Part shown: in pieces, positions 25,084 through 56,210 of the stretch
Layout of the letters: every line of letters starts with the position of its first letter
Numbering within the stretch: the first letter of the stretch is position 1
DNA from: an uncultured Vicinamibacterales bacterium
GTDB lineage: Bacteria > Acidobacteriota > Vicinamibacteria > Vicinamibacterales > UBA8438
NCBI GenBank assembly: GCA_958295905.1
Contig: OY282382.1
Location: 3,942,910 to 4,006,909, forward strand
Direction of reading: 5' to 3'
Length of the DNA: 64,000 bases
Position numbers and translations under genes: made by a program
Notes under the pieces: generated by a model
Seen by the model: only the letters and a program-made list of their open reading frames with translations
Database searches by the model: none
What the model was told of the DNA's origin: nothing

Positions 25084-25425
25084 TCAGCCGAGCACGCCGG
25101 CGTAGCTGTCGGCGTCGAAGCCGACGAGCAGGATTCCGCCGACCCGCAGGAGCGGCGCCCGCAGGTTGCCGGTGGCGCCGACCATCGCGTCGAGCACCGT
25201 GTCGTCGGGCGCGCCGCGCGGCTCGAACTGCTGGACCCGCCGGCCCTTGGCCACGACGATGCGCGACGCCGCCGCGGCCAGCTCGCGGGCGTCCGACCGG
25301 CCGAGCTTGCGGCTCGCCGGCACCCGCTCTTCAACCTCGATCCCGTTGGCCTCCAGAAACCTGGAGGCTTTCACGCAGCTCGTTCAACCGGATCGGTGGT
25401 AGTACCAGTCGACCCTACTGCCCAT
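25084..25425 (-). CDS. ArsC/Spx-family redox protein, candidate selenoprotein (in-frame TGA at 25384-25386 read as Sec)
   Basis: Hand translation upstream of the track ORF gives MGSRVDWYYHRSG-TGA-TSCVKASRFLEANGI. This aligns with the Spx/ArsC N-terminus (..LY.SPSCTSCRKARAWLEEHEI), with the first Cys replaced by TGA. Confidence 0.65.
25349..25368 (-). promoter_or_regulatory. SECIS-like hairpin downstream of the in-frame UGA
   Basis: RNA reads GCCUCCAG-GUUU-CUGGAGGC, an 8-bp perfect stem with a loop that begins GU. The stem starts 15 nt after the UGA. Confidence 0.55.
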
Positions 25426-26425
25426 CGTCCGCCGCCGTCTTCTCGACCGCCCGGGCCCCCGTCAGCGTGCCGTCCATGCCGTAGTTGCCCTCGTGGCAGG
25501 CGTACTCGAACAGCGGGAGGCCGCTCTGCCGCATCGGCAACTCCACCGACCACGGCTGCGTCCACGTCGTCGGGTCGGTCACCGTGAAGCTGTAGAGCAG
25601 CACATCCTCGCTCCCGCGCCGGAACCGCTCGACGAGGTGGAGGTTCCGGCTCGAGTTCCGGAAGCTGGTCTCGCGCAGGAAGTTCTTCGTCTCGACGACC
25701 AGGGTGTCGCCGTCCCAGTGGCCGCGCGAGTCGCCGGTCCACAGCGGCACCGGGCCGTGGCCGCTGCCGTCGAGGGGGATGATCCGGGCGTTGTGGACCA
25801 TTTCGTTGAGCAGCACGACGTGGTCGGCGGTCTGGAAGATCTGCACGTTCATGTTGTAGGCGGCGGGCAGCATCGGTGGTCCCGAGTTGAAGCCGGTGAT
25901 GCAGCGCTCGCCAAGGGGGCGATCTTCGGGGCCCCACGACGGCCGCTGGTTGATGCGCAGGCGCTCCGCCGCGCGGGCCTCCGCCGCCACCGTCAGCGCC
26001 GGCACCCGCCCGTTCGGGGGATCGACGACCAGCGAGGTCCGGCGGGTCTCGACGACGGAGTCGCCGCGGTCCCACCAGAAGTCGTTGTAGGCGAGGGCGA
26101 GGTCGCGGCTCTCGCGCGTGCCGTTGACCTGTCCCCGGTCGGTGGTCTCCAGCTTCCTGGCTTCCCGATCCCGGTCGGCGTTGCTCGCCTGCACGCGCTC
26201 GGCGGCGTAAGCGGCGACCTCCTCCTCGGAGAGGAACGCCTGGTCGGCGAACTCCTCCGGACGCTCGAGCGGGGTCACGGTCCGGAAATCCCAGACGCCG
26301 CTGATGTCGGGGTGCCCGTCAGGGGTGCGCAGGATCCCGCTCTCGGACTGGGCGGCGGCCGGGGTCGAGAGCGACAGCGCAAGCACGGCGCTGCCCGCGA
26401 GCACGGCGGCGGTTCGGATGGTCAT
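25415..26425 (-). CDS. Secreted protein of unknown function, EYACHEGNY family, paralog 1
   Basis: Signal peptide MTIRTAAVLAGSAVLALSLSTPAAA. Shared blocks are [68 protein letters not shown] and [19 protein letters not shown]. Confidence 0.75.
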   Translation of the reverse strand: MTIRTAAVLAGSAVLALSLSTPAAAQSESGILRTPDGHPDISGVWDFRTVTPLERPEEFADQAFLSEEEVAAYAAERVQASNADRDREARKLETTDRGQVNGTRESRDLALAYNDFWWDRGDSVVETRRTSLVVDPPNGRVPALTVAAEARAAERLRINQRPSWGPEDRPLGERCITGFNSGPPMLPAAYNMNVQIFQTADHVVLLNEMVHNARIIPLDGSGHGPVPLWTGDSRGHWDGDTLVVETKNFLRETSFRNSSRNLHLVERFRRGSEDVLLYSFTVTDPTTWTQPWSVELPMRQSGLPLFEYACHEGNYGMDGTLTGARAVEKTAADDGQ

Positions 26426-26442
26426 GGTCGTTTCACCTCTGT

Positions 26443-26630
26443 GTGAGAATGGGCGGCTACCCCGCAACCCGGGCCGTTCCGCCCAACTGCGAACGGCTCC
26501 TGAGTGAGAATGGACGGTTATCCCGCAACCCGGGCCGTTCCGCCCAACTGCGAACGGCTCCTGCGTGAGAATGCGCGGCTACCCGCAACCCGGGCGGTTC
26601 CGCCTGACGGCGAACGGCCCCGGTTGCGGT
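26443..26630. repeat. Three tandem 61-bp units filling the paralog 2-paralog 1 intergenic region
   Basis: The unit gtgagaatgggcggctaccccgcaacccgggccgttccgcccaactgcgaacggctcctga starts at 26443, 26504 and 26565. Each contains the hairpin gccgttccgc..gcgaacggc. Confidence 0.85.
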
Positions 26631-26634
26631 CCAC

Positions 26635-27678
26635 CTACTTCGACGCCTCGGCCGCTTCCGCCACCCGCGCGCCGGCGAGGATGTTGTAGAGGCCGTAGTT
26701 GCCCTCGTGACAGGCGTACTCGAACACCGGCTGGTCGTTCCACACCATGGGCACCTCGTAGGTCCACGGCCGCGACCAGACGGTGGGATCGTCGATGGTC
26801 GCCTCGTACATCAGCACCCCCGCCGACACCCGCGTGAACCGCTCCGTAAGACGCAGGTTCGCGTCGGTCGCCCCCGACCGGAAGCTCGTCTCGCGCAGGA
26901 AGTTCCCCGTCTCGACGACCAGGGTGTCCCCCTCCCAGTGGCCGCGCGAGTCGCCCGTCCACTGCGGGAGGTCGATGGCGGGACGCCCGTCGAGGGGCAC
27001 GATGCGCGCGTTGTGGTTCATCTCGTTGAGCAGGACCACATGGTCGGGGGTCTGGAAGATCTGCACGTTGTTGTTGTAGCCGCCCGGAGTCATCGGGGGG
27101 CCGGCGTTGAAGCCGGTGATGCAGCGCAACTGCAGCCCGTTGGCGCCGAGGTCCTCGACCCAGCCGCCCGGCGTCGGCTCGTGATTGGCCGTGCCTTCCC
27201 GCGCCGCCCGCAGCGCCGCCTGCCGCTCGGCCGCCTCGGGGACCAGCGCCGGGATCGTCCCGTCCGGCGGGTCGACGACCAGCGACGTCCGCCGTGTGTC
27301 GACGATGGTGGTGCCGCGGTCGAGCCAGAAGTTGTTGTAGAAGCCGGGAGCGCCCTCCTCCCCGCGGTCCACGCTCTCGGTGACCTCCGTTCTCACGGCG
27401 GGACGATTCAGGAGGTCTTCATTGCGGGCCAGGGTCTCCTGCTCCAGGTTCGCGGCCTCCTCCTCGGTCAGAAACGCCCGGTCTCCCAGCGCCTCGGGAC
27501 GTTCCATCGGGGTGATGGAGCGGAAGTCCCACACGCCCTGCAGATCGGGCGCGCCCCACCCGGTCCGCGACGCCGCTTCCCCGGCCGCCTGCCCGGCTGC
27601 GGCCGCCGGGGCCAGCATGCCGAACGCGACCACGGCCACGATCGCCCGACCTGCCGCCGCACAATGTCGATGGTTCAT
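26635..27678 (-). CDS. EYACHEGNY-family secreted protein, paralog 2
   Basis: Same conserved blocks. ATG at 27678 with a GAGGAGGG SD, and a signal peptide. Confidence 0.75.
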   Translation of the reverse strand: MNHRHCAAAGRAIVAVVAFGMLAPAAAAGQAAGEAASRTGWGAPDLQGVWDFRSITPMERPEALGDRAFLTEEEAANLEQETLARNEDLLNRPAVRTEVTESVDRGEEGAPGFYNNFWLDRGTTIVDTRRTSLVVDPPDGTIPALVPEAAERQAALRAAREGTANHEPTPGGWVEDLGANGLQLRCITGFNAGPPMTPGGYNNNVQIFQTPDHVVLLNEMNHNARIVPLDGRPAIDLPQWTGDSRGHWEGDTLVVETGNFLRETSFRSGATDANLRLTERFTRVSAGVLMYEATIDDPTVWSRPWTYEVPMVWNDQPVFEYACHEGNYGLYNILAGARVAEAAEASK

Positions 27679-27757
27679 GTCACCCTCCTCGTCCACCCGC
27701 GTGGTTACGATGATCGCCTACTTCGGCGGCCGGACGCAAGCGTCCCCAGGGACCGCG

Positions 27758-34111: not shown

Positions 34112-34404
34112 TCCCGGCGGCGATGGGATAGCCCGCCACGAGGTAGCGGTCGTCGTGCAGACACGGCGCGTATCTTCAGCAGGTGGTCGGCGCACCTGTC
34201 GACCGGCTTGCGCGGGTGTCCTTCGAGAAACCGGGCGACGGTCGCCACACGCCGCATCGCCGCCACCCGGCTGACCTTGCCCTTCGAGAATGCCCCGCAC
34301 GCGCGCCCAGGCCAGTGCGCCAACCTCGGGCTCCCCGCCTTCAACTCGAAGCAAGTTGGGGTGTGCCGATCTCGCAAGTTCAACAACGAGAGGGACAATC
34401 CCAC

Positions 34405-36891
34405 ATGAGCTGGCTAGATGATCTGGGGCGCGATCTGCGTCACGCGGTCCGCAGTCTGGGGCGCAACGCGGGCTTCACGGCCACCGTGACGCTCATCCTG
34501 GCGCTGGGCATCGGCGCCAACACCGCCATGTTCAGCATCGTCTACGGCGTCCTGCTACGGCCGCTCCCGTACCCGGACGCTGACGGCATCGTGCGCATCA
34601 GCGAGCCGCTGCTCGTGTCGAGTGCTTCGGAGTACCTGTCGAACCGATCGACGTTGCTGCTTCAGGGGAACGCGGAGTCCTTCGAGCAGATCGCCGTCCA
34701 CCAGGACATGACCGCCGATTGGGACGGCGCCAAGCTGACCGGCGGCAGGGTCTCGCCATCCCTGTTCCCGCTGTTGCGGGCCGCGCCGCACCTGGGGCGG
34801 CTGTTCCTGGACGAGGAGGCGGTGCCGGGCACGGCGAGCGTGGTGCTGCTGAGCCACGGCGCATGGACAAGCCGCTTCGGCGCCGATCCGTCCGTCGTCG
34901 GGACCACGATGAGTCTCAATGGTGATTCGCACCTCGTGGTCGGCGTGCTGTCCGAAGGGCTCAATTTCCCGTCCCCGAGCACCGAGTTCTGGGTGCCGTA
35001 CGTCATCCAGCCACCCGCCGATCAGGGTTCGGCGGGTGGCGTCGCATCTCCCGTGATCGGCCGGCTGCGCCCCGGTGTCTCCGCAGAGCAGGCAGCAGCC
35101 GAAATCGACAGCATCCTGCAAGACAACAGGACCCCGCTCCAGGCGCTGGTCGCCGCCGGCGGCGATGGCAATGCGCCGGGTGCCCGCGTGATCCCGCTGC
35201 TAGAGGAGATGGTCGGCGAGTACCGCCCCGCCCTCTGGATACTGACCGCCGTGGCAGTGCTCGCGTTGCTGGTCGCCGGTCTGAACGTCGCCGGTCTGCT
35301 CCTAGCCCGCGGCGTGGCCCGCCGGCGCCTGCTCGCCATCAGTGCGGCCCTCGGCGCCAGCCGCGGGAGGCTCGTGCGTCAGCTCCTGACCGAGAGCGTA
35401 GTGCTGACGCTGATCGGAGGCGCGGCGGGGCTGACCGTCGCCGGCCTGATCCTCAGCGCCGTACCTGCGCTCGCGCCGGTCGACGTCGCCCGCCTGGATG
35501 AGGTCGGGATCGACGGCACGGTGTTTGCTTTCACGGCAGGCCTGTCGCTCGTCGTCGGGCTGTTGTGCGGCGCCGGACCGGCACTCCAATGCTCCCAGGT
35601 CCGCCTCGTGGACGCCCTCAACGAGGGCAGTGCCGCCAGCGGCTCGCGCACTCACCGCTTGCGCACGGCGATGTCCGCGATGCAGGTCGCCGCGGCGGTC
35701 ATGCTGCTGATCGGCGCAGGGCTATTCGTCCAGAGCTTGGTCCAGCTCCTCACCTTCGACCGCGGCTTCGATCCTACCAACGTGATCACGATGGAGGTCT
35801 CGAACCCGCTGGGCGCTGCACCGCACGAGATGGCGACCCGGTTGCCCGAGATAACAACGATGCACCAGCAGTTCCACGAGCGCCTCGTCGACGAGGTGTT
35901 GCCCCGGATCCAGCCCCTTGCCGACGTGGAAGCCGTTGGCCTCTCCCGCAACGTGCCCTTCGGGCGCAATGTGTCCAGCAACGGCATCCTCCGGGTGGCC
36001 GGTACGCCCTTGTCGAGCGATCTGAACGAGAGGCCGCGTACGGCGCTGCAGGTGGTGAGCCCCGGCTACCTCGACACCCTGCGGTTCCGTCTGCGGGCCG
36101 GCCGCACGTTCACACCCCAGGACGGACGCGAGAGCCCGCGGGTCCTGGTCGCCAACGAGACGCTGGCCCGACAGCTCTTTGGCAATGAGCCGGCGGTCGG
36201 CCGGCGGGTGGACGTGGGTCCTGGCGAGCCGTGGGAGGTCGTCGGCGTCGTGGGCGACATCGTGTACGATGGCCTCGACCTTACGGGCGAGAGGCAGCCG
36301 GAGGCGTACTTCCCACTCGCCCAGGCCACCGACACGCTCTTCGGTTTCACCACGGGCGTGCGGATCTCCGTGAGGACCGCGAGCGGCTCGCTGGCCGTCG
36401 TCCCGTTCGTCCGCGAGGCTGTCACCGCGGCGAATCCGCAGGCGACCATCAGCGAGATCTCGACGATGGAGACGCGCCTGCTGAACGCCGTCGCCTGGCC
36501 GCGCCTCTATGTCTTCTTCGTCGGGTCGCTCGCCGGGCTTGCGCTGATCCTCGCGGCGGTCGGCATCTACGGCCTCCTCAGCTACACCGTGGCTCAGCGC
36601 GAGCGCGAGATCGGCATCCGCATGGCGTTGGGTGCCCGGAGTTCCCGGATCCTCGCGCTGGTGATTGGGCAGGGCGTCGTGCTGGTGGGCGTCGGAGGGT
36701 TGATCGGCGTGGGCGCCGCAACGGTATTCCGCCCGCTGCTAGAGAGCTTCCTCTACGGTGTAGCCGCCGGCGATAGCCTGTCGTTCCTGGTGGCACCTCT
36801 CGTTCTGGCCGCCGTTGCGCTGGCGGCCTGCTGGTTCCCGGCGCGGCGGGCGGCGCGCGTCGATCCCGTGGGGCTGCTGCGCCTCGAATAG
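34405..36891 (+). CDS. ADOP-family duplicated MacB/FtsX-type ABC transporter permease
   Basis: 828 aa. The N-terminus MSWLDDLGRDLRHAVRSLGRNAGFTATVTLILALGIGANTAMFSIVYGVLLRPLPYP is the hallmark ADOP start, and there are two FtsX-like halves. Confidence 0.85.
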   Translation: MSWLDDLGRDLRHAVRSLGRNAGFTATVTLILALGIGANTAMFSIVYGVLLRPLPYPDADGIVRISEPLLVSSASEYLSNRSTLLLQGNAESFEQIAVHQDMTADWDGAKLTGGRVSPSLFPLLRAAPHLGRLFLDEEAVPGTASVVLLSHGAWTSRFGADPSVVGTTMSLNGDSHLVVGVLSEGLNFPSPSTEFWVPYVIQPPADQGSAGGVASPVIGRLRPGVSAEQAAAEIDSILQDNRTPLQALVAAGGDGNAPGARVIPLLEEMVGEYRPALWILTAVAVLALLVAGLNVAGLLLARGVARRRLLAISAALGASRGRLVRQLLTESVVLTLIGGAAGLTVAGLILSAVPALAPVDVARLDEVGIDGTVFAFTAGLSLVVGLLCGAGPALQCSQVRLVDALNEGSAASGSRTHRLRTAMSAMQVAAAVMLLIGAGLFVQSLVQLLTFDRGFDPTNVITMEVSNPLGAAPHEMATRLPEITTMHQQFHERLVDEVLPRIQPLADVEAVGLSRNVPFGRNVSSNGILRVAGTPLSSDLNERPRTALQVVSPGYLDTLRFRLRAGRTFTPQDGRESPRVLVANETLARQLFGNEPAVGRRVDVGPGEPWEVVGVVGDIVYDGLDLTGERQPEAYFPLAQATDTLFGFTTGVRISVRTASGSLAVVPFVREAVTAANPQATISEISTMETRLLNAVAWPRLYVFFVGSLAGLALILAAVGIYGLLSYTVAQREREIGIRMALGARSSRILALVIGQGVVLVGVGGLIGVGAATVFRPLLESFLYGVAAGDSLSFLVAPLVLAAVALAACWFPARRAARVDPVGLLRLE

Positions 36892-39470: not shown

Positions 39471-42400
39471 GCTCAACGAAGGCCGGGGCGTGAACCCCGG
39501 CGACACGCGAGCTCCTGCTGGTGCGCCAGGCGCCGTTGGAACGCTCAACGAAGGCCGGGGCGTGAACCCCGGCGACACGCGGTGTGCTTGGTGGCGCCGG
39601 TGAGTCCGACGCTCGCTCAACGAAGGCCGGGGCGTGAACCCCGAACGACACGCGTGGGCGGAGGCGACGACCGCCCGGCTCCGCGGGGACGCTCAACGAA
39701 GGCCGGGGCGTGAACCCCGGCGACACTGGTCGGCACCGGCGGTCCCGGCGCCGGCGTATCGCGCTCAACGAAGGCCGGGGCGTGAACCCCGGCGACACTG
39801 GGGCCGCGACGGCGACCTGGGGCTCGAACCTGGTCGCTCAACGAAGGCCGGGGCGTGAACCCCGGCGACACGCGCAGGGCGGCCTGCACCGACATCCCGC
39901 TCCCCGACCGCTCAACGAAGGCCGGGGCGTGAACCCCGGCGACACGCGCAGGGCGGCGCACGCGCACGGCAGTCCCGGCTCGCTCAACGAAGGCCGGGGC
40001 GTGAACCCCGGCGACACCCGAGCCGCCCACGACCGAATTGTGCGCCTCCGTCCGCGCTCAACGAAGGCCGGGGCGTGAACCCCGGCGACACGTGGCCGGC
40101 GGCGCGGTCGAGTGGGGCAGCCGCCTGATCGCTCAACGAAGGCCGGGGCGTGAACCCCGGCGACACTGGCCGGCGGCGCGTGCGGTCCGGAGATTAGTCC
40201 GCGCTCAACGAAGGCCGGGGCGTGAACCCCGGCGACACCACCGCCGCCAGGGCGGTGCTGATGTCGGTCCCCCGCGCTCAACGAAGGCCGGGGCGTGAAC
40301 CCCGGCGACACCCGCGGGCACCGGCGCGAGGGTGCATCTCCTGACGCACCGCTCAACGAAGGCCGGGGCGTGAACCCCGGCGACACCGGACGGCGTGGGT
40401 GAGTCCGCAGGCGAGGCAGTACGCTCAACGAAGGCCGGGGCGTGAACCCCGGCGACACTGTCGGGCGCCGGGGACGGCTCCCTCAGGTCCATCCGCCGCT
40501 CAACGAAGGCCGGGGCGTGAACCCCGGCGACACTACCCGGCCGGGCGGCGCGGCGGTGGCGAGCAACGACGCTCAACGAAGGCCGGGGCGTGAACCCCGG
40601 CGACACGTCGGCTTCTACGGCCTCCGGGGGGCGGCACTCCCTCGCTCAACGAAGGCCGGGGCGTGAACCCCGGCGACACACGCGGAGCTCTACGGCATCC
40701 CCATCAGGATCGGACACGCTCAACGAAGGCCGGGGCGTGAACCCCGGCGACACTTGCGGCGGGCGCTCCGGGCGGTCCCGTCGGGATGACGCTCAACGAA
40801 GGCCGGGGCGTGAACCCCGGCGACACGACGAACGGCGCCGAGTTCCGCAGCGCCGCCGGGGCCCCGCTCAACGAAGGCCGGGGCGTGAACCCCGGCGACA
40901 CGCGGTGCGGCACGACTCCGCGAGTGTCTGTGTCACCGCTCAACGAAGGCCGGGGCGTGAACCCCGGCGACACGGCCTGGATCCGGCGATACAGCTCCGG
41001 ACTGACGTACGCTCAACGAAGGCCGGGGCGTGAACCCCGGCGACACCAGAAAAGACGATGGGCCCCTCCGGCCGGAAGTGCGTCGCTCAACGAAGGCCGG
41101 GGCGTGAACCCCGGCGACACGCCGGACAAATCGAACTGCGTCTGCAGCGCGGTAACGCTCAACGAAGGCCGGGGCGTGAACCCCGGCGACACCTCATCGC
41201 CTTGTCCAGCGCCGGGTTGCCGCTCGGGTCCGCTCAACGAAGGCCGGGGCGTGAACCCCGGCGACACCCGGCACGCTCAGGCGCGCGCCGACATCGCCGT
41301 GGTCGCTCAACGAAGGCCGGGGCGTGAACCCCGGCGACACAGCACGACGGCGAGCACCTCATACATCGGTCCACGCGCTCAACGAAGGCCGGGGCGTGAA
41401 CCCCGGCGACACACATACGGCGTTCGGGCCCGTGCCGCCCGTCCGCGCGCGCTCAACGAAGGCCGGGGCGTGAACCCCGGCGACACCCCCAGGAGGGCTC
41501 GGCGCGCGAGACGGGGCCGACGGCGGTCGCTCAACGAAGGCCGGGGCGTGAACCCCGGCGACACGCGAGCGCCCATGATTTCCCGACGCCGGCCAGGCCC
41601 GCTCAACGAAGGCCGGGGCGTGAACCCCGGCGACACTCAGCGATTGGCTAACCCACGCCCCGGCGACCCGCTTCGCTCAACGAAGGCCGGGGCGTGAACC
41701 CCGGCGACACGCACACATCGTCACCGCGGTCAGACGCGGCGGGGGGCGCTCAACGAAGGCCGGGGCGTGAACCCCGGCGACACTCGTTCCACGACCCGTA
41801 CCCGATGCCGACACCGGTCGCTCAACGAAGGCCGGGGCGTGAACCCCGGCGACACGTCCGGCGGAGTCGGCGCATGCCGAAGGTCCCGGCGCGCTCAACG
41901 AAGGCCGGGGCGTGAACCCCGGCGACACTCCCGGGGTTGCTGCGCTCGGTCAGCACGCTCACGGCCGACGCTCAACGAAGGCCGGGGCGTGAACCCCGGC
42001 GACACCATCCACCGGCCGACCCTTGTCGGTCCCCGCCATCGGCGCTCAACGAAGGCCGGGGCGTGAACCCCGGCGACACGGCACCTTCCGCTTCGAGGCC
42101 GCGGGGAGTGCCGACGCTCAACGAAGGCCGGGGCGTGAACCCCGGCGACACTCCCGCCGGACTCGGCGAGAGCCTGCTTGGACCAGCCCGCTCAACGAAG
42201 GCCGGGGCGTGAACCCCGGCGACACCGGCGCGCCGGCCCCGGCCCGGTCCCGCGCTTCTTGAGCGCTCAACGAAGGCCGGGGCGTGAACCCCGGCGACAC
42301 CGGCCGAGAGCGGGACGCCCATGGGTATGCCTCCTCGCTCAACGAAGGCCGGGGCGTGAACCCCGGCGACACTTCGCCCAGGACCGCGCCCGCAGCGACT

Positions 42401-45400
42401 TCGACCGGTGCGCTCAACGAAGGCCGGGGCGTGAACCCCGGCGACACGAACCCGCGCCCGGAGGACCTTCCAACGCTTGGTGTTCGCTCAACGAAGGCCG
42501 GGGCGTGAACCCCGGCGACACGCACAGGGCGGATGAGCCACGACCGGACTGCCGCCCGCCGCTCAACGAAGGCCGGGGCGTGAACCCCGGCGACACGTCG
42601 TCACCGACGGCAACGCTTCGCCGTCGAGCGTCGCTCAACGAAGGCCGGGGCGTGAACCCCGGCGACACCTCCCGAGCACGATCACAAGGAAGCGTTCTGC
42701 CTGATGTGCGCTCAACGAAGGCCGGGGCGTGAACCCCGGCGACACGCAGGCGTGGACGCGGATCAGGTCGGCGCTCCCACACGCTCAACGAAGGCCGGGG
42801 CGTGAACCCCGGCGACACCAGCAACCGGAGTGTGTCACTGCCACTGCCGGTAGCCGTTCGCTCAACGAAGGCCGGGGCGTGAACCCCGGCGACACCTTGG
42901 CCCCTGATGATGTCGCTGACGCCGCTGACTTCCGCTCAACGAAGGCCGGGGCGTGAACCCCGGCGACACCCACGAGGCGGCCGGCAGGAGCACGTCCGGG
43001 TCGCCCGCCGCTCAACGAAGGCCGGGGCGTGAACCCCGGCGACACACCTTGAAATCGACTATACCGGCCAACTTGTCGCCGCTCAACGAAGGCCGGGGCG
43101 TGAACCCCGGCGACACGGCGGCGCTCGGTGACCAGGTGGGCGGGAGCCTGACCGGCGCTCAACGAAGGCCGGGGCGTGAACCCCGGCGACACTTGGCGCT
43201 CGAACCGGGCCGCGGGCAGGTCGCGGACCGCTCAACGAAGGCCGGGGCGTGAACCCCGGCGACACACTCCACGATGGCGACAGCGCGGGCGCTGACCGGC
43301 TACTCCCGCTCAACGAAGGCCGGGGCGTGAACCCCGGCGACACTGGTAAAGATAGCTCCCCGCACCGGTGCCACCTACTCCCGCTCAACGAAGGCCGGGG
43401 CGTGAACCCCGGCGACACACAAACTCCAGACTGGAACCCATCACAGGAACCATGACCGCTCAACGAAGGCCGGGGCGTGAACCCCGGCGACACCCGACCA
43501 TGCCGGCCGAACCAGCGAACCTCCCCCCGCTCAACGAAGGCCGGGGCGTGAACCCCGGCGACACTTCTTGAGCTCGCCGGTGATCTGGTTCAAGCCGCCC
43601 GCTCAACGAAGGCCGGGGCGTGAACCCCGGCGACACCTCGCGGAGCAGGATGGCGCGGCGCATCGGCGGATGCGCTCAACGAAGGCCGGGGCGTGAACCC
43701 CGGCGACACCTCGCGGAGCAGGATGGCGCGGCGCATCGGCGGATGCGCTCAACGAAGGCCGGGGCGTGAACCCCGGCGACACGCCACCGCGAGATACCAG
43801 CAGACGCGGTGTTGGGTGCGCTCAACGAAGGCCGGGGCGTGAACCCCGGCGACACCACGAGAAGCGCCGCGGCCAGCGCCTCGCGCCGCGTCGCTCAACG
43901 AAGGCCGGGGCGTGAACCCCGGCGACACCACACCTGCGCCAGGTCGCCCTTGTGCGCCTCGTACGCTCAACGAAGGCCGGGGCGTGAACCCCGGCGACAC
44001 CTAGCATCCTGGGATTGGCTACTCACCGTATTCAGTTCGCTCAACGAAGGCCGGGGCGTGAACCCCGGCGACACTTCTTCTGCTTCTCGGCGCGCCACAC
44101 CTCGATCCGCGCTCAACGAAGGCCGGGGCGTGAACCCCGGCGACACCCGACCCAAACCTCGGCCCGGCCAGTATCTGGCCACGCTCAACGAAGGCCGGGG
44201 CGTGAACCCCGGCGACACCCTCGGCTTGCAGCCGCACATCGTGGCGCTGTCTGCCGCTCAACGAAGGCCGGGGCGTGAACCCCGGCGACACCGGCGCGCC
44301 GGGCTCGAGCCCGGCGCGCCAGGTGCTCGCTCAACGAAGGCCGGGGCGTGAACCCCGGCGACACATGCGTCCACCGGCGGACGTTCCCCCGCGCGGCCGC
44401 CGCTCAACGAAGGCCGGGGCGTGAACCCCGGCGACACTCGCCGATCCTGACCAGCCCGCACCGGACGACCTCGGGCGGCGCTCAACGAAGGCCGGGGCGT
44501 GAACCCCGGCGACACTCGCCGAACTCCACGGGGGGCGGGTCGCCCCGCCGCGCTCAACGAAGGCCGGGGCGTGAACCCCGGCGACACTCCAGGACCAAAA
44601 GTCATGATCGAGAAACGGCACGGCGCTCAACGAAGGCCGGGGCGTGAACCCCGGCGACACGCGGCGGTGCCCAGCGCTTGAGGCACGGCGTCCGACGCTC
44701 AACGAAGGCCGGGGCGTGAACCCCGGCGACACCGTCACCAGGCATCCGGGGGCCGACAGTCTCATCGACGCTCAACGAAGGCCGGGGCGTGAACCCCGGC
44801 GACACGCGAGCGCCCATGATTTCCCGACGCCGGCCAAGCCCGCTCAACGAAGGCCGGGGCGTGAACCCCGGCGACACCACACCGGCAAGGCCGCAGCCGA
44901 CGTTCGCCTACACCGCTCAACGAAGGCCGGGGCGTGAACCCCGGCGACACTCGCGCGCCTGCCCGGGGAGACCCGTCACATCGTCGCTCAACGAAGGCCG
45001 GGGCGTGAACCCCGGCGACACGCCTGCGTTCCGGGGCGCTGACGCGCCTAGAGGGCCACCGCTCAACGAAGGCCGGGGCGTGAACCCCGGCGACACGTCG
45101 ATGGCCCCGCTGAACCGGGACGATTTCGACGCCGCTCAACGAAGGCCGGGGCGTGAACCCCGGCGACACCCTGATTGGCCCTTGCTGACTGACTGATAAG
45201 TGAATGCGCTCAACGAAGGCCGGGGCGTGAACCCCGGCGACACAAGAGCGCCGAAGCCGGGGGGACGGAACTCCATCGTCGCTCAACGAAGGCCGGGGCG
45301 TGAACCCCGGCGACACTCGACCCGGAGATCGACGGCCGCGAGGCCGACGGGCGGGCCGCTCAACGAAGGCCGGGGCGTGAACCCCGGCGACACCCGCGGG

Positions 45401-48400
45401 GGTCGCCCCGATCTGGCCGCTCGTGTTCCACGCTCAACGAAGGCCGGGGCGTGAACCCCGGCGACACTCGCCGACTTCCCCGTTGCTGTTCCGGGTCAAC
45501 CGGATCGCTCAACGAAGGCCGGGGCGTGAACCCCGGCGACACGTGCTCGACATGGGGCGCGCCGCCTTGGATGCTTCGGTCGCTCAACGAAGGCCGGGGC
45601 GTGAACCCCGGCGACACTCGGTGGATTTAGCTGCGCCGGTGAGGCTCCGGCTCGCTCAACGAAGGCCGGGGCGTGAACCCCGGCGACACCCGCGACACGG
45701 CGCCGGCGGCGGTGTCGTCGAACGGCGCTCAACGAAGGCCGGGGCGTGAACCCCGGCGACACCCCCTTGGATGATGATCTTATACCGCCCGCCCACGAGC
45801 GCTCAACGAAGGCCGGGGCGTGAACCCCGGCGACACGGACATGCTCCGGCGCGGCTTCCTCGCCGGAGATCGCTCAACGAAGGCCGGGGCGTGAACCCCG
45901 GCGACACCCCCGCCTACCCGAGCACGAACCCGCACCGTGACCCGCTCAACGAAGGCCGGGGCGTGAACCCCGGCGACACGTGGGTCTACGGCGCGTCGAT
46001 TACCGCGGGCACGGGCGCTCAACGAAGGCCGGGGCGTGAACCCCGGCGACACGCCCGTCGTCTCGCGGCACAACCACGCGCCGCCGCCCTCCGCTCAACG
46101 AAGGCCGGGGCGTGAACCCCGGCGACACACCCGACGCCGGGTGGCTGGCCGGGCAGGCCGAGCGGGCCGCTCAACGAAGGCCGGGGCGTGAACCCCGGCG
46201 ACACGAGGCTGGGCGTAGGGTCCCGACGCATGGCCGGATACTCGCTCAACGAAGGCCGGGGCGTGAACCCCGGCGACACCCCATTCCGCCAGCATGCAGG
46301 GGCCGGGCCACAACAACCGCGCTCAACGAAGGCCGGGGCGTGAACCCCGGCGACACCCGCCGCGCAGGGCGGCGCACGCGCACGGCAGTCCGGGCTCGCT
46401 CAACGAAGGCCGGGGCGTGAACCCCGGCGACACCCCATTCCGCCAGCATGCAGGGGCCGGGCCACAACAACCGCGCTCAACGAAGGCCGGGGCGTGAACC
46501 CCGGCGACACATACTCGAAGAGCTGCACAAGAACGGTGAGTTTGCCCGCTCAACGAAGGCCGGGGCGTGAACCCCGGCGACACGGGCCGCCCGGTTCCTC
46601 GGGCTCGGCGGCGGCGGCTGGTACGCTCAACGAAGGCCGGGGCGTGAACCCCGGCGACACCCTCCCCGGCGGGCACGGGGTGTAGCCGCGGCCCTTGCCC
46701 GCTCAACGAAGGCCGGGGCGTGAACCCCGGCGACACGGCGTTGACGCCCAGGGTCCGCTGGCCGCCGACGTGCGCTCAACGAAGGCCGGGGCGTGAACCC
46801 CGGCGACACCGCCTCGGGCACGAGGCGCGGGTCGAAGCCACGCTCCGCTCAACGAAGGCCGGGGCGTGAACCCCGGCGACACCGACACGTAGTACTCCAC
46901 GTCGGCCGACTGCTCAGCCGCTCAACGAAGGCCGGGGCGTGAACCCCGGCGACACCCGCAGCGGGCCGCCGCGGACATCCCACGACGCGACCGCGCTCAA
47001 CGAAGGCCGGGGCGTGAACCCCGGCGACACGCCCGGCGACCGCGGGTACTTCCGGGGGGGCGGGGCCGCTCAACGAAGGCCGGGGCGTGAACCCCGGCGA
47101 CACGCATCCTGTTCGGCGGGGGCGCCAAGCGGCCGGCGCGCTCAACGAAGGCCGGGGCGTGAACCCCGGCGACACTCGGAGTGGCGGCGTTCCTGCGCCT
47201 GCATCCAATCGTCGCTCAACGAAGGCCGGGGCGTGAACCCCGGCGACACGCGCCCACGCCGGGTCGTTGCCGTCCGTCATCACGTGCGCTCAACGAAGGC
47301 CGGGGCGTGAACCCCGGCGACACCCACACCGACGACAGCACGCCGACCGCCCAACCGCACGCTCAACGAAGGCCGGGGCGTGAACCCCGGCGACACGCTG
47401 ATACGGCGCTTGGTGGCGCGCGTGGATGAGCTCGCTCAACGAAGGCCGGGGCGTGAACCCCGGCGACACTCGGAGCTCGGCGACACGACCGGCGCGGTGG
47501 ATGAGGCCGCTCAACGAAGGCCGGGGCGTGAACCCCGGCGACACCTCCTGCCTGCTGTCCAGACCCAACGCCCTGTCGAGCGCTCAACGAAGGCCGGGGC
47601 GTGAACCCCGGCGACACACGCGCCACACGGGGTCCGGGGCCGATGGGTGGTGGATGCGCTCAACGAAGGCCGGGGCGTGAACCCCGGCGACACGCCCGGG
47701 CCCCCGGCCCCATCCCCAAGGGCGCCCTCCGCGCTCAACGAAGGCCGGGGCGTGAACCCCGGCGACACACGCGACGATACAGATGATCGCCTCGATGTCC
47801 ATCGATCGCTCAACGAAGGCCGGGGCGTGAACCCCGGCTTCTTCGTGACCGCGGACTCGGCCTCGACGTAGACCGCTCAACGAAGGCCGGGGCGTGAACC
47901 CCGGCGACACCCCTTCACGACCGAGCGAGCGGAGCGAGCGAGGGAGCGCTCAACGAAGGCCGGGGCGTGAACCCCGGCGACACACGACCGCCACGGATCG
48001 CGCGCCGTCGGCCGATCCGCTCAACGAAGGCCGGGGCGTGAACCCCGGCGACACGCGCGGCACGCCCGGCGGCGCCTACCTGGCGTCGCGCGGGCGCTCA
48101 ACGAAGGCCGGGGCGTGAACCCCGGCGACACGCCGTTGTGGGCGATGTAATAGCGGTTGTCGTCCGGGCGCTCAACGAAGGCCGGGGCGTGAACCCCGGC
48201 GACACTCCCGCGGGCCGGGGTGCCGTCGGCACTGGACCGCCCCGCTCAACGAAGGCCGGGGCGTGAACCCCGGCGACACACGCTCCGCATGTCATATGGT
48301 TACGCTCCGCGTGTCCGCTCAACGAAGGCCGGGGCGTGAACCCCGGCGACACTCGTCGTCGGCCGGGGTCTCGTCGGCGTCGTGATCCGCTCAACGAAGG

Positions 48401-51400
48401 CCGGGGCGTGAACCCCGGCGACACTGGAGCACCCACAGCAGCCGCCGGCTGACCTTGCCCATCGCTCAACGAAGGCCGGGGCGTGAACCCCGGCGACACT
48501 TCACAGAAAGCTCGGCGTCAGTTCTTGGCACGTCAACGCTCAACGAAGGCCGGGGCGTGAACCCCGGCGACACTTCTCGAGCCGCCCGCGCCACGCCTTG
48601 AGCTCGGCGTTCGCTCAACGAAGGCCGGGGCGTGAACCCCGGCGACACTCCGCGGACCTCGAACGGCCGCGAGAGCGAGTGGGTCGCTCAACGAAGGCCG
48701 GGGCGTGAACCCCGGCGACACGGGGCCGCCCGGCGACATGGAGTGGCTGACAGCGCACGCTCAACGAAGGCCGGGGCGTGAACCCCGGCGACACCATCAC
48801 GAGGTCGGCGGTCTCCCCGCGGCCGTCGCGCGCTCAACGAAGGCCGGGGCGTGAACCCCGGCGACACGCGATACAGCGGAGGAATCTACCACGGAGGCAA
48901 CCTCGCTCAACGAAGGCCGGGGCGTGAACCCCGGCGACACTGCGACCTCTCCGTTGCTCAACCTCGTCAGCCGGATCGCTCAACGAAGGCCGGGGCGTGA
49001 ACCCCGGCGACACCCGCCGCGATGCTCTCGCTGCAGCGGCTAGGGCTCACGCACGCTCAACGAAGGCCGGGGCGTGAACCCCGGCGACACGCTCTGGGCG
49101 GACGGGCCCAGCGCGCCGCCAAGCGCGCGCTCAACGAAGGCCGGGGCGTGAACCCCGGCGACACTCCAAGCCGTTGCGGACGCCGCCGCGGCGGCCGGCG
49201 GGGAACGCTCAACGAAGGCCGGGGCGTGAACCCCGGCGACACCCTCCAGAGCGAATCCGACCGCCACCGGGTCGTAGACCGCTCAACGAAGGCCGGGGCG
49301 TGAACCCCGGCGACACGGCTTGAAGTGCATCTTGGCCTGAGCCTTGGCTGTCGCTCAACGAAGGCCGGGGCGTGAACCCCGGCGACACAACGCCGCCCTC
49401 GCGTGCGCGGCGTTCCTCGCGGCCGCTCAACGAAGGCCGGGGCGTGAACCCCGGCGACACCTGTTGCAACTTCCCACGACTGCCCGCCCAGCCCGCCGCG
49501 CTCAACGAAGGCCGGGGCGTGAACCCCGGCGACACCTGTCTCCCACCTTCGGCCCGCGCCCCGCGAGCGAACGCTCAACGAAGGCCGGGGCGTGAACCCC
49601 GGCGACACACGCCGGCCACGAGCATGTAGTGCGTCGCGCCCATCGCTCAACGAAGGCCGGGGCGTGAACCCCGGCGACACTGGTGGTGTGCGGCCCTGAC
49701 GGCCGCCGAGGACGATGGCGCTCAACGAAGGCCGGGGCGTGAACCCCGGCGACACGTGCGAGGCGGCGTCATTCAGCGCGGCGAAGGAAGCCGCTCAACG
49801 AAGGCCGGGGCGTGAACCCCGGCGACACTCGAGCCACTCGGCCTCGAGCAGGCCCGAGTCTATCGCGCTCAACGAAGGCCGGGGCGTGAACCCCGGCGAC
49901 ACCCTCCAGCACCGCCGCCCCGACATCCCCCGACCGACCCGCTCAACGAAGGCCGGGGCGTGAACCCCGGCGACACTCGGGCCTCCGCAGTTGCGCGGGT
50001 GCTGGCTAGTCCGCGTCGCTCAACGAAGGCCGGGGCGTGAACCCCGGCGACACCGCACATGGATGTGGCTCGTCGCCACATTTTCAACATCGCTCAACGA
50101 AGGCCGGGGCGTGAACCCCGGCGACACGCCGACGGCGTGAAGGGGGCCGATCTCAAGGCCGCCCCCGCTCAACGAAGGCCGGGGCGTGAACCCCGGCGAC
50201 ACGCGGAGCAGCGCGGATGCAATGTCACCGGATCTGCCCCCGCTCAACGAAGGCCGGGGCGTGAACCCCGGCGACACCACCAAGCCGCCCGCCAACCGGG
50301 ACACGTCGTCCGCCGTCGCTCAACGAAGGCCGGGGCGTGAACCCCGGCGACACTGCCGCAGTCGCCGAACGTCAACGGCCTCATCGTGCGCTCAACGAAG
50401 GCCGGGGCGTGAACCCCGGCGACACCTGCCCCGGTGCCGCGGGCGCGCCCGCCACCCGCGTCGCTCAACGAAGGCCGGGGCGTGAACCCCGGCGACACGC
50501 ACCCGTATACCCATAGTCCCCATAGGCCCGGAACGCTCAACGAAGGCCGGGGCGTGAACCCCGGCGACACCCGCGCGGCTCATCCGCCCGCGCGAACCGT
50601 CAGCCGCTCAACGAAGGCCGGGGCGTGAACCCCGGCGACACCACGAGCCATCCGGCGGCGATCGTCTTGCCCGACTCCGCTCAACGAAGGCCGGGGCGTG
50701 AACCCCGGCGACACACGAAATCACGCAGGATTTGCCGGCGTTCTTCGTATCGCTCAACGAAGGCCGGGGCGTGAACCCCGGCGACACCCGGCGTATCCGC
50801 GCCGCCGTCGATTTCGGCGCGGACGGCGCTCAACGAAGGCCGGGGCGTGAACCCCGGCGACACCTCCTGGGTGGATGGCCCTGATTGGCCCTTGCTGACT
50901 GCGCTCAACGAAGGCCGGGGCGTGAACCCCGGCGACACCGCCGCGCAGGGCGGCGCACGCGCACGGCAGTTCGGGCTCGCTCAACGAAGGCCGGGGCGTG
51001 AACCCCGGCGACACTCCCGGAGCGGCTACAAGACCATCGTCGATCTCGACGGGCGCTCAACGAAGGCCGGGGCGTGAACCCCGGCGACACCCCGGCGCGC
51101 CGATGGCCCGCGCTTCATCGAGCTCGTCCGCTCAACGAAGGCCGGGGCGTGAACCCCGGCGACACCGCTGCCGCGATCCGGTGTGGGGGGCCGTCAAGTC
51201 CGCTCAACGAAGGCCGGGGCGTGAACCCCGGCGACACTCAGAGCGTCCGCCGCGCCGGAGCGGCTTAGTGCACGCTCAACGAAGGCCGGGGCGTGAACCC
51301 CGGCGACACTGGGCGTGGGCGGCGTGGCCGCCGGGATGCATCTCGCTCAACGAAGGCCGGGGCGTGAACCCCGGCGACACCCGCTCAGTGACTCTGTGGC

Positions 51401-54099
51401 GAACACGGCATGACTGATCGCTCAACGAAGGCCGGGGCGTGAACCCCGGCGACACCGGCAAACCGATCGGCCAGCTAGCCGCCGATTCCCGTCACCGCTC
51501 AACGAAGGCCGGGGCGTGAACCCCGGCGACACGCGCAGGGCGGCGCACGCGCACGGCAGTCCTCGTTCGCTCAACGAAGGCCGGGGCGTGAACCCCGGCG
51601 ACACCCGGGGTCGGATGTCCCGGACGGGCCGATGGTGTGGGCGCTCAACGAAGGCCGGGGCGTGAACCCCGGCGACACACGTCGAGGCCGCGGTCGATCA
51701 GGTCGGCGACGAGCGCCCGCTCAACGAAGGCCGGGGCGTGAACCCCGGCGACACTGCCCAGCGCCGCGTAGTTCAGCGGCCGAGTCACTGCGCTCAACGA
51801 AGGCCGGGGCGTGAACCCCGGCGACACGCCGGCGCTGGCTGAGCTCGATACCGCGCTCGGTGCGCTCAACGAAGGCCGGGGCGTGAACCCCGGCGACACC
51901 CGCCCGGACCCCTGCCGCGGCGCGATGCTCTCACCAGCGCTCAACGAAGGCCGGGGCGTGAACCCCGGCGACACTCGCCCGGACGGCGGTGCTCAAGGCC
52001 GCCCGGGCGCGCTCAACGAAGGCCGGGGCGTGAACCCCGGCGACACCAGGCGGCGCGTCGATCCCGGAGCCCACCGTCTGGAGCGCTCAACGAAGGCCGG
52101 GGCGTGAACCCCGGCGACACCGGTGCGAAGCCGGATGCGCCGGCCGCCACCTGGACGCGCTCAACGAAGGCCGGGGCGTGAACCCCGGCGACACTTGAGG
52201 GCGTGGCGAATCTCCTGCCCGTTGAGCGGGGCGCTCAACGAAGGCCGGGGCGTGAACCCCGGCGACACGCCAACACGGCGGCGCAGCGGGCCGCCGTCCA
52301 AGCCGCTCAACGAAGGCCGGGGCGTGAACCCCGGCGACACTCCAGCCGGCGGGGCGGGCCCGGAGGTCGGCGTCGTGCGCTCAACGAAGGCCGGGGCGTG
52401 AACCCCGGCGACACAGTTCGACCTCGCGGATGAAGTCGCCGAGCAGCTGCGCTCAACGAAGGCCGGGGCGTGAACCCCGGCGACACGTCCTGGTTGCCGA
52501 CGAGCGTGCCCTCGAACGCGCTCGCTCAACGAAGGCCGGGGCGTGAACCCCGGCGACACGCCAGTGCCGCGGGTGCATCGCAGCGCGGCGGAGAGGCGCT
52601 CAACGAAGGCCGGGGCGTGAACCCCGGCGACACTCGATCTTGTGGGTCCAGGTCCTCACGCTCACGCGCGCTCAACGAAGGCCGGGGCGTGAACCCCGGC
52701 GACACTCGAGTCGGCCGCGCAGGTGACCCTCTGGCCCGGGCGCTCAACGAAGGCCGGGGCGTGAACCCCGGCGACACGACCTGCTGGGCGCGATCCAGCT
52801 CTGGCTAGTCCGCTCGCTCAACGAAGGCCGGGGCGTGAACCCCGGCGACACGCGGGCATCTGGGGGGCGCACTAGATGGTACCGAGGCTCGCTCAACGAA
52901 GGCCGGGGCGTGAACCCCGGCGACACCCGCGGCGCGTGCTGTGCACGGTCTGCACCGATCGCGCTCAACGAAGGCCGGGGCGTGAACCCCGGCGACACCT
53001 GGAGCCGGTGCAATGCCGGCGGCCGATGCGGGAGCGCTCAACGAAGGCCGGGGCGTGAACCCCGGCGACACCGCCGGCGGCGCGTTGAGCACGTCGACCC
53101 GCCGCAGCGCTCAACGAAGGCCGGGGCGTGAACCCCGGCGACACAGGCGCTCGAAGCCGCGGCGGAAGCCCGCGACGACGCTCAACGAAGGCCGGGGCGT
53201 GAACCCCGGCGACACATCCGCCATGCGGCTGTTGGCGGCGTTCATGTGGCGCGCTCAACGAAGGCCGGGGCGTGAACCCCGGCGACACTCTATCGTATGG
53301 GTCCAGGTCCTCACGCTCACGTGCGCTCAACGAAGGCCGGGGCGTGAACCCCGGCGACACCCCACGCGCGGCACCGCGTGCAGTAGACACCCTCCTCCAG
53401 CGCTCAACGAAGGCCGGGGCGTGAACCCCGGCGACACCGTACCGCAGGGCGGTGCCGGTGACGCGGCGCGACTCGCTCAACGAAGGCCGGGGCGTGAACC
53501 CCGGCGACACACCCGACGGTTCGGCCAGGCGGCGGTCACGCATCCATCGCTCAACGAAGGCCGGGGCGTGAACCCCGGCGACACGCGCCCGACAGCCCGG
53601 CAGTGCCGAGCTGGATGACCTCGCTCAACGAAGGCCGGGGCGTGAACCCCGGCGACACTGGCGTGTCTCGCACTGTCCGGCATGGAGGCGCCTCCCGCGC
53701 TCAACGAAGGCCGGGGCGTGAACCCCGGCGACACGTGAAGGGGACGCCGACGCGGACGGCGCCGATGGAACGCTCAACGAAGGCCGGGGCGTGAACCCCG
53801 GCGACACTGGTCCGGCGTCATCGGGCCGCCCGCCGCGTGGCCCGCTCAACGAAGGCCGGGGCGTGAACCCCGGCGACACGTCCCGCATCGCCACCAGAAG
53901 CCGAGCGTCCCGTCCGCTCAACGAAGGCCGGGGCGTGAACCCCGGCGACACCCGCGTCCGCGTTCGAGGTCTGCGCCTGCATCGCGGCCGCTCAACGAAG
54001 GCCGGGGCGTGAACCCCGGCGACACTCGACACGCCGGCCGGGACGGCGTTCCGCGCCCGGGTCGCTCAACGAAGGCCGGGGCGTGAACCCCGGCGACAC
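39471..54099 (-). CRISPR. CRISPR array with a 36-bp repeat and about 200 spacers of 35-41 bp
   Basis: The plus-strand repeat is gctcaacgaaggccggggcgtgaaccccggcgacac. The transcribed (minus) form is GTGTCGCCGGGGTTCACGCCCCGGCCTTCGTTGAGC, a 7-bp stem plus an 11-nt 3' tail. The period is 72-77 bp. A degenerate repeat at the 39.6-kb end and the leader and cas2 at the 54.1-kb end set the orientation. The count is estimated from length divided by period. Confidence 0.97.
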
Positions 54100-54588: not shown

Positions 54589-55605
54589 TCATGGCAGCAC
54601 GAACGGCGGATACGCCGGCAGATCACCGCGGAGGTGACGGGCGAGCAGAGTCGCCTGGACCGACGGCAGCGCCCAGCGGCCTATCTGGCGACCCAAGAGC
54701 GGATGCCGGATCTCGGCTTCCTTGTGTTCCTCCCAAGCCTTGATCAGACCCGTCCGACCGTCGTCGCTCAGGTAGACGCCGCCTCCCGGCACCTGGACGA
54801 AGCTGTCGTGGCCGACTTGCCGGCGGCGAATCAGGGACACGACGAATCGGTCTGTCAGGGCGCGCTGCTCCTCGGCAAGGTCCAGGGCGAGCGAGGGGCG
54901 GCCGGCACGCGGACGATGGAAGAAGCCCATCTGGTAATCCAGGCCGACGCTCTCCGCCGCGCCGATGCACTCCGTCACCAGCAAGCCGTAGCAAAATCCG
55001 AGCATGGCGTTGACGGGGTCCCGGGGCGGCCGACGTGTTCTTGCCGAGAAATCCAGGTCACTCGACGCGAGGGCCTGACCGACCGCGCGAAAGTAGATTC
55101 TGGCCGCATCGCCTTCAATACCCCGAATGTGGTCCGCAGTTTCGGCGTCGACCAGTCGAGCGATCCGCTCCCGGATCTGGGCGCCGCGAGCCGCGAGCCG
55201 TTCTGCCTCGGCGGCATTCTTCTCATCGCGCGACCACCGATCGACGACCTTCCGGCTGTTCTGGAGCTTCGCCGCAACAATTGCCTTGGACAGGGCGAGC
55301 GACTTGACGTCGTCCATGGCGGTCCGGAACAGCGCCGTACGCAAATGCACGTTCCCGCCGGTCGCGCCGTTGACGACGAACCGGATGGCTCCGCTCATGT
55401 GGAGCGCGGCCACGCGAACACCGCGGCGCACGCACGCATCCAGAGCCTGGGTGGTGACCTGCGCGCCGCCCAGCACGACCAGAGCGTCAATCGCTTCGAG
55501 CGGAATCCGCTGACTCCCGTCCGGCGAGGACACGAGCAGCGACCCGCGGCGATGCTGCACGCGGGCGCGATGGTTGCGGACGTACACGGTGCTCAGGTAG
55601 CGCAT
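54589..55605 (-). CDS. cas1: CRISPR-associated integrase Cas1
   Basis: 338 aa with the Cas1 pattern (IEGDAARIYF, NAMLGFCYGLL, DLAEE). It is not fused to Cas4. Confidence 0.9.
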   Translation of the reverse strand: MRYLSTVYVRNHRARVQHRRGSLLVSSPDGSQRIPLEAIDALVVLGGAQVTTQALDACVRRGVRVAALHMSGAIRFVVNGATGGNVHLRTALFRTAMDDVKSLALSKAIVAAKLQNSRKVVDRWSRDEKNAAEAERLAARGAQIRERIARLVDAETADHIRGIEGDAARIYFRAVGQALASSDLDFSARTRRPPRDPVNAMLGFCYGLLVTECIGAAESVGLDYQMGFFHRPRAGRPSLALDLAEEQRALTDRFVVSLIRRRQVGHDSFVQVPGGGVYLSDDGRTGLIKAWEEHKEAEIRHPLLGRQIGRWALPSVQATLLARHLRGDLPAYPPFVLP

Positions 55606-56210
55606 CCGAATACGGCGTCGGCCATGTACCGCTCTACCTTACGGGGCCTGCTCGTGAGCTCGGGCAAACAGTGGTGCAGTAGCTGGCATTCCGCACACCG
55701 GCGGTCGTTGGGCGCGTCCGGCAGATCGGCCGTCAGCATCTGCTTCCGGATCTCGTGGATGACGGTCTGCACGTCGTGGCGCAACTCCACCGTGAAATCG
55801 ACCAGAACGCGGCGCCGCGGTCCGCCGTACCACACATGGCCGTGCGGCACGGCGGCGTCGAACATCTCCTCGAGACACAGCGCCTGCGCGCACAGCTGGA
55901 GATCCGCAGCCATTCCATGCCGTACACCCGCCTTGTATTCGACGGGATGGACCGCTCCATCGTCTACTTCGACTGCATCGGCGCGGCCCGACAGTCCCAG
56001 TCTCTCGGACCAGAGCGGGATGGAGCGAAGTATCTGTCGCCCCCGTTCACGGCGATGCTGGCCGCTGTCGACCCGGCGATGCGCGCGCATGCCCTTCACG
56101 GTGTGGACGTTGTCGCTCCAGACGCCGTCGCAATGGATCAGGGCGCATTGGCGCGGACAGTACGCGAAGTGCTCAATGGCGGAGATCGGAACGACGGGCT
56201 CGGTGTTCAC
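55593..56210 (-). CDS. cas4: CRISPR-associated exonuclease Cas4
   Basis: FAYCPRQ N-terminal Cys, the GRADAVE...PVEYK nuclease motif and C-terminal CAECQLLHHC. It overlaps cas1 by 13 nt. Confidence 0.9.
   Translation of the reverse strand: MNTEPVVPISAIEHFAYCPRQCALIHCDGVWSDNVHTVKGMRAHRRVDSGQHRRERGRQILRSIPLWSERLGLSGRADAVEVDDGAVHPVEYKAGVRHGMAADLQLCAQALCLEEMFDAAVPHGHVWYGGPRRRVLVDFTVELRHDVQTVIHEIRKQMLTADLPDAPNDRRCAECQLLHHCLPELTSRPRKVERYMADAVFGCAT

Follow-up and report, generated by a model that had tools for sequence, protein, structure and literature searches.

The minus strand of the 64-kb stretch of DNA under study (hereafter, the window) carries, at positions 25084–25425, what we consider, with a probability of about 93%, to be a real selenocysteine (Sec)-encoding gene. 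Its product would be a cytoplasmic thioredoxin-fold protein of 113 aa belonging to family NF041106, with the motif Sec14-Thr-Ser-Cys17, an in-frame UGA decoded under the direction of a hairpin in the mRNA and a likely oxidoreductase function.

Translation of the minus strand from 25440 to 25084 gives RRRRTMGSRVDWYYHRSG*TSCVKASRFLEANGIEVEERVPASRKLGRSDARELAAAASRIVVAKGRRVQQFEPRGAPDDTVLDAMVGATGNLRAPLLRVGGILLVGFDADSYAGVLG*, with asterisks marking TGA codons. The upstream part is RRRRTMGSRVDWYYHRSG, and the peptide following the first TGA opens with TSCVKASRFLEANGIEVEE and ends with ...GVLG*. The start codon, ATG (25423–25425), is the first start codon of the frame. An ATG occupies the equivalent codon, 13 positions before the Sec codon, in 130 of 161 distinct Sec forms and in all genomes of the close clade. 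The in-frame UGA for Sec14 (25384–25386) is the first position of a U-T-S-C redox motif, positions 25392–25372 reading SG*TSCV. The TGC at 25375–25377 encodes Cys17, the presumed resolving cysteine of the UxxC pair, whose column is invariant in both alignments made (A1 and A3). The genuine stop codon at 25084–25086 is also a TGA. The coding character of the interval is reflected in a GC3 of 0.94 for this frame, the GC-content of the window being 70–73%, and in the full-length match of the translation to the NF041106 profile. Long plus-strand ORFs covering the same interval were rejected as antisense artefacts of a 72% GC genome. The initial annotation of this DNA had proposed just this model, with ATG at 25425, an in-frame TGA and T-S-C after it, and the model is exact in both coordinates and strand.

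A search of approximately 5.8 billion proteins returned 270 homologs. Most of them are 79–99 aa long and begin at various points 3′ of the TGA, while a minority of 112–117 aa read M..(V)DWYYHRxGCxxC. Full-length homologs are rare in the databases and carry Cys at the column of the Sec residue (U column) or, in two JGI entries, W. Alignment A1, in which the U and C columns coincide, shows no variation at D6, W7, Y9, R11 and C17. At the DNA level the picture is uniform. A scan of genomes, taking one genome per species and the best 80 loci, found TGA at the U column in 80/80 cases; these loci span Myxococcota, Acidobacteriota, Gammaproteobacteria, Binatia, Spirochaetes, Opitutales and other groups. 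A metagenome scan returned 80 loci, of which 78 matched the motif search, and TGA was present in all 78 despite the use of a Cys-form query. A close clade of 12 loci, corresponding to six genomes with 83–90% amino acid identity and shared synteny, retains the ATG, the 13 upstream codons, the TGA and the TSC in 12/12 loci. Altogether TGA was found at this column in 161/161 distinct DNA-level relatives, and the two collection scans contained no Cys forms. The proposal that the TGA stands in place of the first redox Cys, giving UTSC, is thus borne out by full-length protein homologs with Cys and DNA-level relatives with TGA. Homologs with neither Cys nor Sec in this column had been named as grounds for rejecting it; the column holds Cys in the proteins, or TGA in the 80, 78 and 12 loci of the three sets.

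Some genomes of Marinacidobacterales contain two copies of the selenoprotein gene. Such pairs are L030 and L036, both on OZ253507.1, and L019 and L041, both in one MAG (CBDANW01). The sequence around the TGA is identical in the two copies of OZ253507.1, which lie far apart on a chromosome of 10.2 Mb.

A different reading of the locus places the true start at the GTG of 25372–25374, which encodes Val18 in our model. The gene would then encode 96 aa with no CxxC-type motif, the TGA would lie outside it and the hairpin would be a by-product of the peptide sequence. This start is the one chosen in the mechanical ORF list (GTG 25374, 96 aa), and truncated forms of 79–99 aa (P0001 and dozens of relatives) are what public collections hold. 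However, the callers choose different starts from genome to genome, and the family is stored (P0001–P0044 and P0121–P0125) as fragments that start inconsistently and measure 79, 83, 85, 96 or 99 aa. The GTG itself is not conserved even at 83–90% identity, the codon being GTG, AGC, GCG, TCC or GCC across the six close-clade genomes, whereas the upstream ATG and the peptide DWYYHRSG are kept in all six. The 13 codons 5′ of the TGA, conserved from phylum to phylum in the form DWYYHRxG, evolve synonymously; within the close clade they differ from the window by 0–2 synonymous and 0–1 non-synonymous changes per genome. A product started at the GTG would also lack strand 1 and the active site. Since the upstream codons and the ATG are conserved and the GTG is not, a start at the GTG is excluded as far as these comparisons go, and we regard this reading as extremely improbable. 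Homologs beginning at the GTG, which would have counted against the initial annotation, did not emerge, and its statement that ORF calling misses the gene was correct, as both the 96-aa ORF and the fragments in public collections testify.

The same data bear on the possibility that the locus is a pseudogene, in which a Cys codon (TGC or TGT) became TGA in a lineage incapable of Sec insertion, or in which the Sec trait has been lost. A change of TGC to TGA requires a single base, and no Sec machinery is visible in the 64-kb window. ARAGORN and Rfam found only tRNA-Met there and no tRNA-Sec, and tblastn with E. coli queries gave no match to SelA, SelB or SelD either in the window or in the fetched flanks of the relatives. 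Against decay stands the occurrence of TGA in 161/161 distinct relatives, so the codon is ancestral and not recent. Neither before nor after the TGA is the reading frame broken, and in the six close-clade genomes the codons 5′ of it are under purifying selection and the hairpin is kept. A recent nonsense mutation is excluded because all members of the close clade retain the ATG, the codons preceding the TGA, the TGA itself and the TSC. Without Sec decoding, TGC replacements or decay would be expected, and none were seen. We therefore rate a pseudogene as very improbable. That purifying selection has kept this TGA-containing gene intact in six related genomes speaks, indirectly, for Sec decoding in the lineage, and the gene implies that Sec-decoding machinery is present in the source organism.

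UGA might also be read as Trp or Gly under an alternative genetic code, and the two JGI entries with W at the Sec column (P0033 and P0045) are what such a code would produce. However, in P0045 the terminal TGA is likewise translated as W and a nonsense tail follows, so the W is a translation-table artefact. Moreover, the same gene terminates with TGA, and the GC-content of the window (70–73%) is unlike that of the known UGA-reassigned bacteria, which are low-GC lineages. The probability of reassignment is close to negligible. A GC3-based scan for other TGA read-through genes in the window yielded two candidates, both rejected as antisense artefacts; the scan missed its positive control and so had no power.

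The reading of the UGA as Sec is accompanied by a hairpin of the SECIS type inside the coding sequence (25349–25368, minus strand). It has the structure GCCUCCAG-GUUU-CUGGAGGC and begins 15 nt past the TGA, with the 5′ arm at 25368–25361, the GUUU loop at 25360–25357 and the 3′ arm at 25356–25349. The distance from the UGA to the apical loop is 23 nt. The predicted folding energy is −14.6 kcal/mol (z = −4.2), and none of 200 shuffled sequences was as stable. When all TGA triplets of the window were counted in any frame and on both strands, a perfect 8-bp hairpin with SECIS spacing and an early loop G followed only 12 of 1433 (0.8%), so a chance occurrence is unlikely. The published criteria for bacterial SECIS elements are a loop of 3–9 nt, an upper stem of 4–16 bp, a G in the first two loop positions, a UGA-to-loop spacing of 16–37 nt and an MFE ≤ −7.5 kcal/mol (PMC13188914). 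The window hairpin lies within all of these ranges, having a 4-nt GUUU loop that begins with G and then U, 8 bp, a spacing of 23 nt and −14.6 kcal/mol. The hairpin described in the initial annotation is therefore present as it was drawn, with a GUUU loop, a start 15 nt past the TGA and a spacing inside the bacterial range. No such hairpin follows the stop TGA at 25086–25084. An Rfam search of positions 25250–25500 at E ≤ 10 gave no match, which is uninformative and was to be expected because Rfam contains no model for such an element.

The hairpin is maintained in the relatives at the RNA level. For the covariation analysis, 79 distinct segments of 60 nt were placed in a gap-free alignment that begins at the TGA and in which helix columns 19–26 face columns 31–38. 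In this alignment 89.6% of the helix cells are paired, compared with 24–42% when the 3′ partner is slid by 1–3 columns. Three pairs covary (G-C/U-A; G-C/C-G/A-U/G-U; and A-U/G-C), the observed covariation score was reached by none of 500 shuffles, and the same helix was recovered by RNAalifold. All six close-clade genomes retain the hairpin. A divergent subgroup of four metagenomic sequences (L147, L148, L150 and L164), encoding the peptide A/S-Q-G-F-L-A-K/Q, places a wholly different 8-bp stem, GCGCAGGG...CCUUGCGC, equally far from the UGA (19–37 nt after the TGA). This stem is a natural compensatory variant of the family SECIS. In the Cys forms L171, L173 and L174, three sequences in all and obtained by exact look-ups, only 3–5 of the 8 stem positions can pair and the hairpin is not formed.

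The stem nucleotides also specify a conserved peptide, A-S-K/R-F-L-D/E-A, and a synonymous-codon test on the 161 distinct Sec forms was therefore used to look for constraint that the protein does not explain. The serine located in the stem (U+7, counted from the Sec residue) is encoded by TCC in 145 of 146 cases, with an entropy of 0.06 bit, whereas the serine outside the stem (U+2) uses AGC, TCC, TCT, AGT and TCG, with an entropy of 1.92 bits. Likewise, the lysine whose codon gives the loop G27 (U+8) is AAG in 126/126 cases (0 bits), and at four other lysine positions AAA and AAG are mixed (0.6–1.0 bit). The window has AGG at U+8, which retains the loop G. In most sequences the wobble base of the alanine at U+6 pairs with that of Asp/Glu at U+11. 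Such suppression of synonymous codons in the stem exceeds what the protein requires, which is a further point against a gene starting at the GTG.

With Sec written as Cys, the 113-aa protein matches NF041106 with 104.9 bits (cutoff 85; E = 3.1e-30) over profile positions 1–107 of 107, and the profile is also matched by 14/14 aligned relatives. The match to the Pfam ArsC family PF03960 is weaker, at 18.7 bits against a gathering threshold of 24. It covers positions 1–77 of 79 in the 113-aa form and only 42–77 of 79 in the GTG-started ORF; the N-terminal extension is needed for the ArsC domain because the start of the profile is covered only when the extension is present. Eight of the 14 relatives match PF03960 at E < 0.01, the best at 2.2e-7. 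These scores support homology to ArsC at the superfamily level, with the window sequence itself placed short of formal PF03960 membership. The Spx/MgsR model TIGR01617 (cutoff 75) gave 32.4 bits, the Spx equivalog models gave 11–16 bits, and the arsenate reductase equivalog TIGR00014 was absent among the NCBIfam matches at E ≤ 1. Of the Arg triad that, together with a catalytic Cys, marks glutaredoxin-coupled ArsC, only one Arg, within the motif GNLRAP, can be aligned.

Among known structures, the family profile matched Spx best (PDB 1z3e, E = 2.6e-8); next came an NMR structure related to ArsC, and YffB. In the alignment to 1z3e the U/C column falls on Cys10 of Spx, so the B. subtilis Spx motif SPSCTSCRKARAWLEEHEI, cited earlier as the counterpart of the window sequence, aligns as claimed. 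U14xxC17 corresponds to the N-terminal CxxC redox switch of Spx (C10xxC13) that characterises Spx/MgsR, and GNLRAP falls on GLLRRP. The GNLRAP motif (25153–25170, minus strand), whose residues are invariant in alignments A1 and A3, aligns in this way with the Arg and cis-Pro region of the ArsC/Spx fold. The AlphaFold model inspected is that of the Cys homolog P0016, 59% identical to the window protein (pLDDT 94.7). In it, C14xxC17 sits where strand 1 gives way to helix 1, the classical thioredoxin-fold position. Foldseek searches with this model gave Spx, YffB and ArsC-related structures at TM of about 0.5–0.56, then glutaredoxins, and the similarity of the modelled fold to the solved ArsC/Spx structures is only moderate. 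The protein is a divergent branch of the ArsC/Spx/YffB superfamily, neither Spx nor canonical ArsC; the original label "ArsC/Spx-like" was right at the superfamily level, and the precise family is NF041106.

The gene located immediately upstream (25415–26467, minus strand) is co-directional and encodes a secreted protein of 350 aa. It ends with ...TAADDGQ* at a TAG stop (25417–25415), and its end overlaps the first 11 nt of the selenoprotein gene (25425–25415). The overlap of stop and start points to translational coupling or an operon, restricted to this clade. The 350-aa gene is one of two tandem paralogs of about 350 aa (25415–26467 and 26635–27696, both on the minus strand) with signal peptides and a shared C-terminal motif. 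The pair has no NCBIfam match, and its relatives have no precomputed Pfam match. Each of the six close-clade genomes has the paralogs directly 5′ of the selenoprotein gene. Further 5′ in the clade are genes for PQQ-repeat, metallo-beta-lactamase-fold and AP-endonuclease-2-fold proteins, and 3′ of the selenoprotein gene are a gene for a protein of about 200 aa and then one for a SpoIIE-type phosphatase. Across the 80 genome loci no family-wide neighbours were found. Real neighbour clusters occur in at most 16 of the 80 loci, so there is no family-wide operon partner and no shared neighbour that would hint at a substrate, and the only frequent "neighbours" are antisense shadow ORFs of the selenoprotein gene itself. 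In one close relative (L085, L086 and L087), transposase genes (DDE_Tnp_1, ISAZ013 and Transposase_mut) surround and interrupt the syntenic block, and one of them splits the SpoIIE phosphatase gene.

Elsewhere in the window, a very large CRISPR array occupies positions 40046–54099. Its 37-nt repeat, CGCTCAACGAAGGCCGGGGCGTGAACCCCGGCGACAC, recurs about every 73 nt in about 190 copies, and the array accounts for a 13-kb stretch with an AT skew of +0.3 and no coding-like ORFs. A type I-G cas set adjoins the array (54589–62649, minus strand) and includes genes for Cas1 (54589–55605), Cas4 (55593–56216), Cas3g (57103–60027) and Csb1/Cas7g (61396–62649), all on the minus strand. A full-length duplicated permease of the ADOP family, which is named for Acidobacteria, is encoded at 34183–36891 on the plus strand (TIGR03434, 778 bits) and gives a hint of the phylum to which the source organism belongs.

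The features described above can be arranged in a scheme of expression. Translation would begin at ATG 25425, within the overlap with the last 11 nt of the upstream gene, its stop codon included. At the UGA of 25386–25384 the hairpin positioned 15 nt downstream would recruit SelB-GTP-Sec-tRNA(Sec), and Sec would be inserted instead of termination taking place. The second UGA, at 25086–25084, lacks a hairpin and would terminate translation. In the folded protein, Sec14, placed at the N-terminus of helix 1, would attack an oxidised substrate, and Cys17 would resolve the intermediate as a selenenylsulfide.

Judging by its fold and motif, the protein most likely works as a UxxC selenol/thiol oxidoreductase in which Sec14 would be the nucleophile and Cys17 the resolving residue. 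Arsenate reduction by this selenoprotein is not supported by any of the evidence presented here. A more speculative idea, which we think rather unlikely, is that the NF041106 proteins are neither arsenate reductases nor Spx-like regulators but a separate kind of thioredoxin-fold oxidoreductase, dependent on selenium almost without exception and acting on a substrate of its own. In the clade of the window this substrate could be tied to the secreted 350-aa paralogs. If so, the predominance of Sec (161 forms versus 0 with Cys) would reflect a reaction that Cys performs poorly.

The main value of the gene lies in annotation. The misannotation of the family in public collections is systematic, the stored fragments being devoid of the active site. 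Reliance on truncated predictions leads to the selenoprotein being missed and to selenium use being under-counted in high-GC lineages.

Known bacterial systems offer several points of comparison. Like the bSECISearch consensus, the window element is a stem-loop within the coding sequence that follows the UGA closely, and its loop begins with G-U. The best-studied bacterial SECIS is that of E. coli fdhF, whose sequence is unrelated to the window hairpin. Spx of B. subtilis (1z3e and 3gfk), a CxxC redox sensor that binds RNA polymerase, is the nearest relative of solved structure by both profile and fold. It differs from the window protein in length (about 131 versus about 113 aa), in the moderate TM value of about 0.55 and in the score under the TIGR01617 cutoff. 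In addition, the middle region modelled for P0016 has a β-hairpin (E55–60 and E63–68), and the window protein bears no sign of RNA polymerase binding.

ArsC-like selenoproteins were already known, as the initial annotation had stated. Arsenate reductase selenoproteins with UxxS were found in the Sargasso Sea data (14 sequences; PMC1088965), "ArsC-like" selenoproteins were described in deltaproteobacterial genomes (PMC1794560), and the GOS survey listed both "Arsenate reductase (ArsC) 1" with UxxS and "Arsenate reductase 2" (cd03032) with UxxC (PMC2398784). The 2026 catalogue of prokaryotic selenoproteins includes NF041106 as "Arsenate reductase-like protein, UxxC", with one Sec, and states that nearly all prokaryotic selenoprotein families were found by bioinformatics and are still functionally uncharacterised (PMC13188914). 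The window protein shares with the Sargasso and GOS ArsC selenoproteins the ArsC/Spx superfamily, Sec at the first active-site Cys and the same TGA/Cys logic of discovery. Its motif is the same as that of the GOS "Arsenate reductase 2", with which it is probably identical, and different from that of the UxxS group.

With NF041106 (ArsC_rel_Se_1) the window protein has in common a full-length match above the cutoff, UxxC, a single Sec close to the N-terminus and a length of about 113 aa. The window reads DWYYHRSG-TGA-TSC where database homologs have Cys. The clade of the window differs from the rest of the family in having GATGNLRAP, with Ala, in place of GPTGNLRAP, with Pro, and in the operon-like overlap with the gene for the 350-aa secreted protein. 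Since the gene passes the curated family model and shows the defining features, it is a genuine member of NF041106, an already catalogued family, and its novelty is low. It introduces no new mechanism and adds one lineage to a widespread, functionally uncharacterised selenoprotein family.
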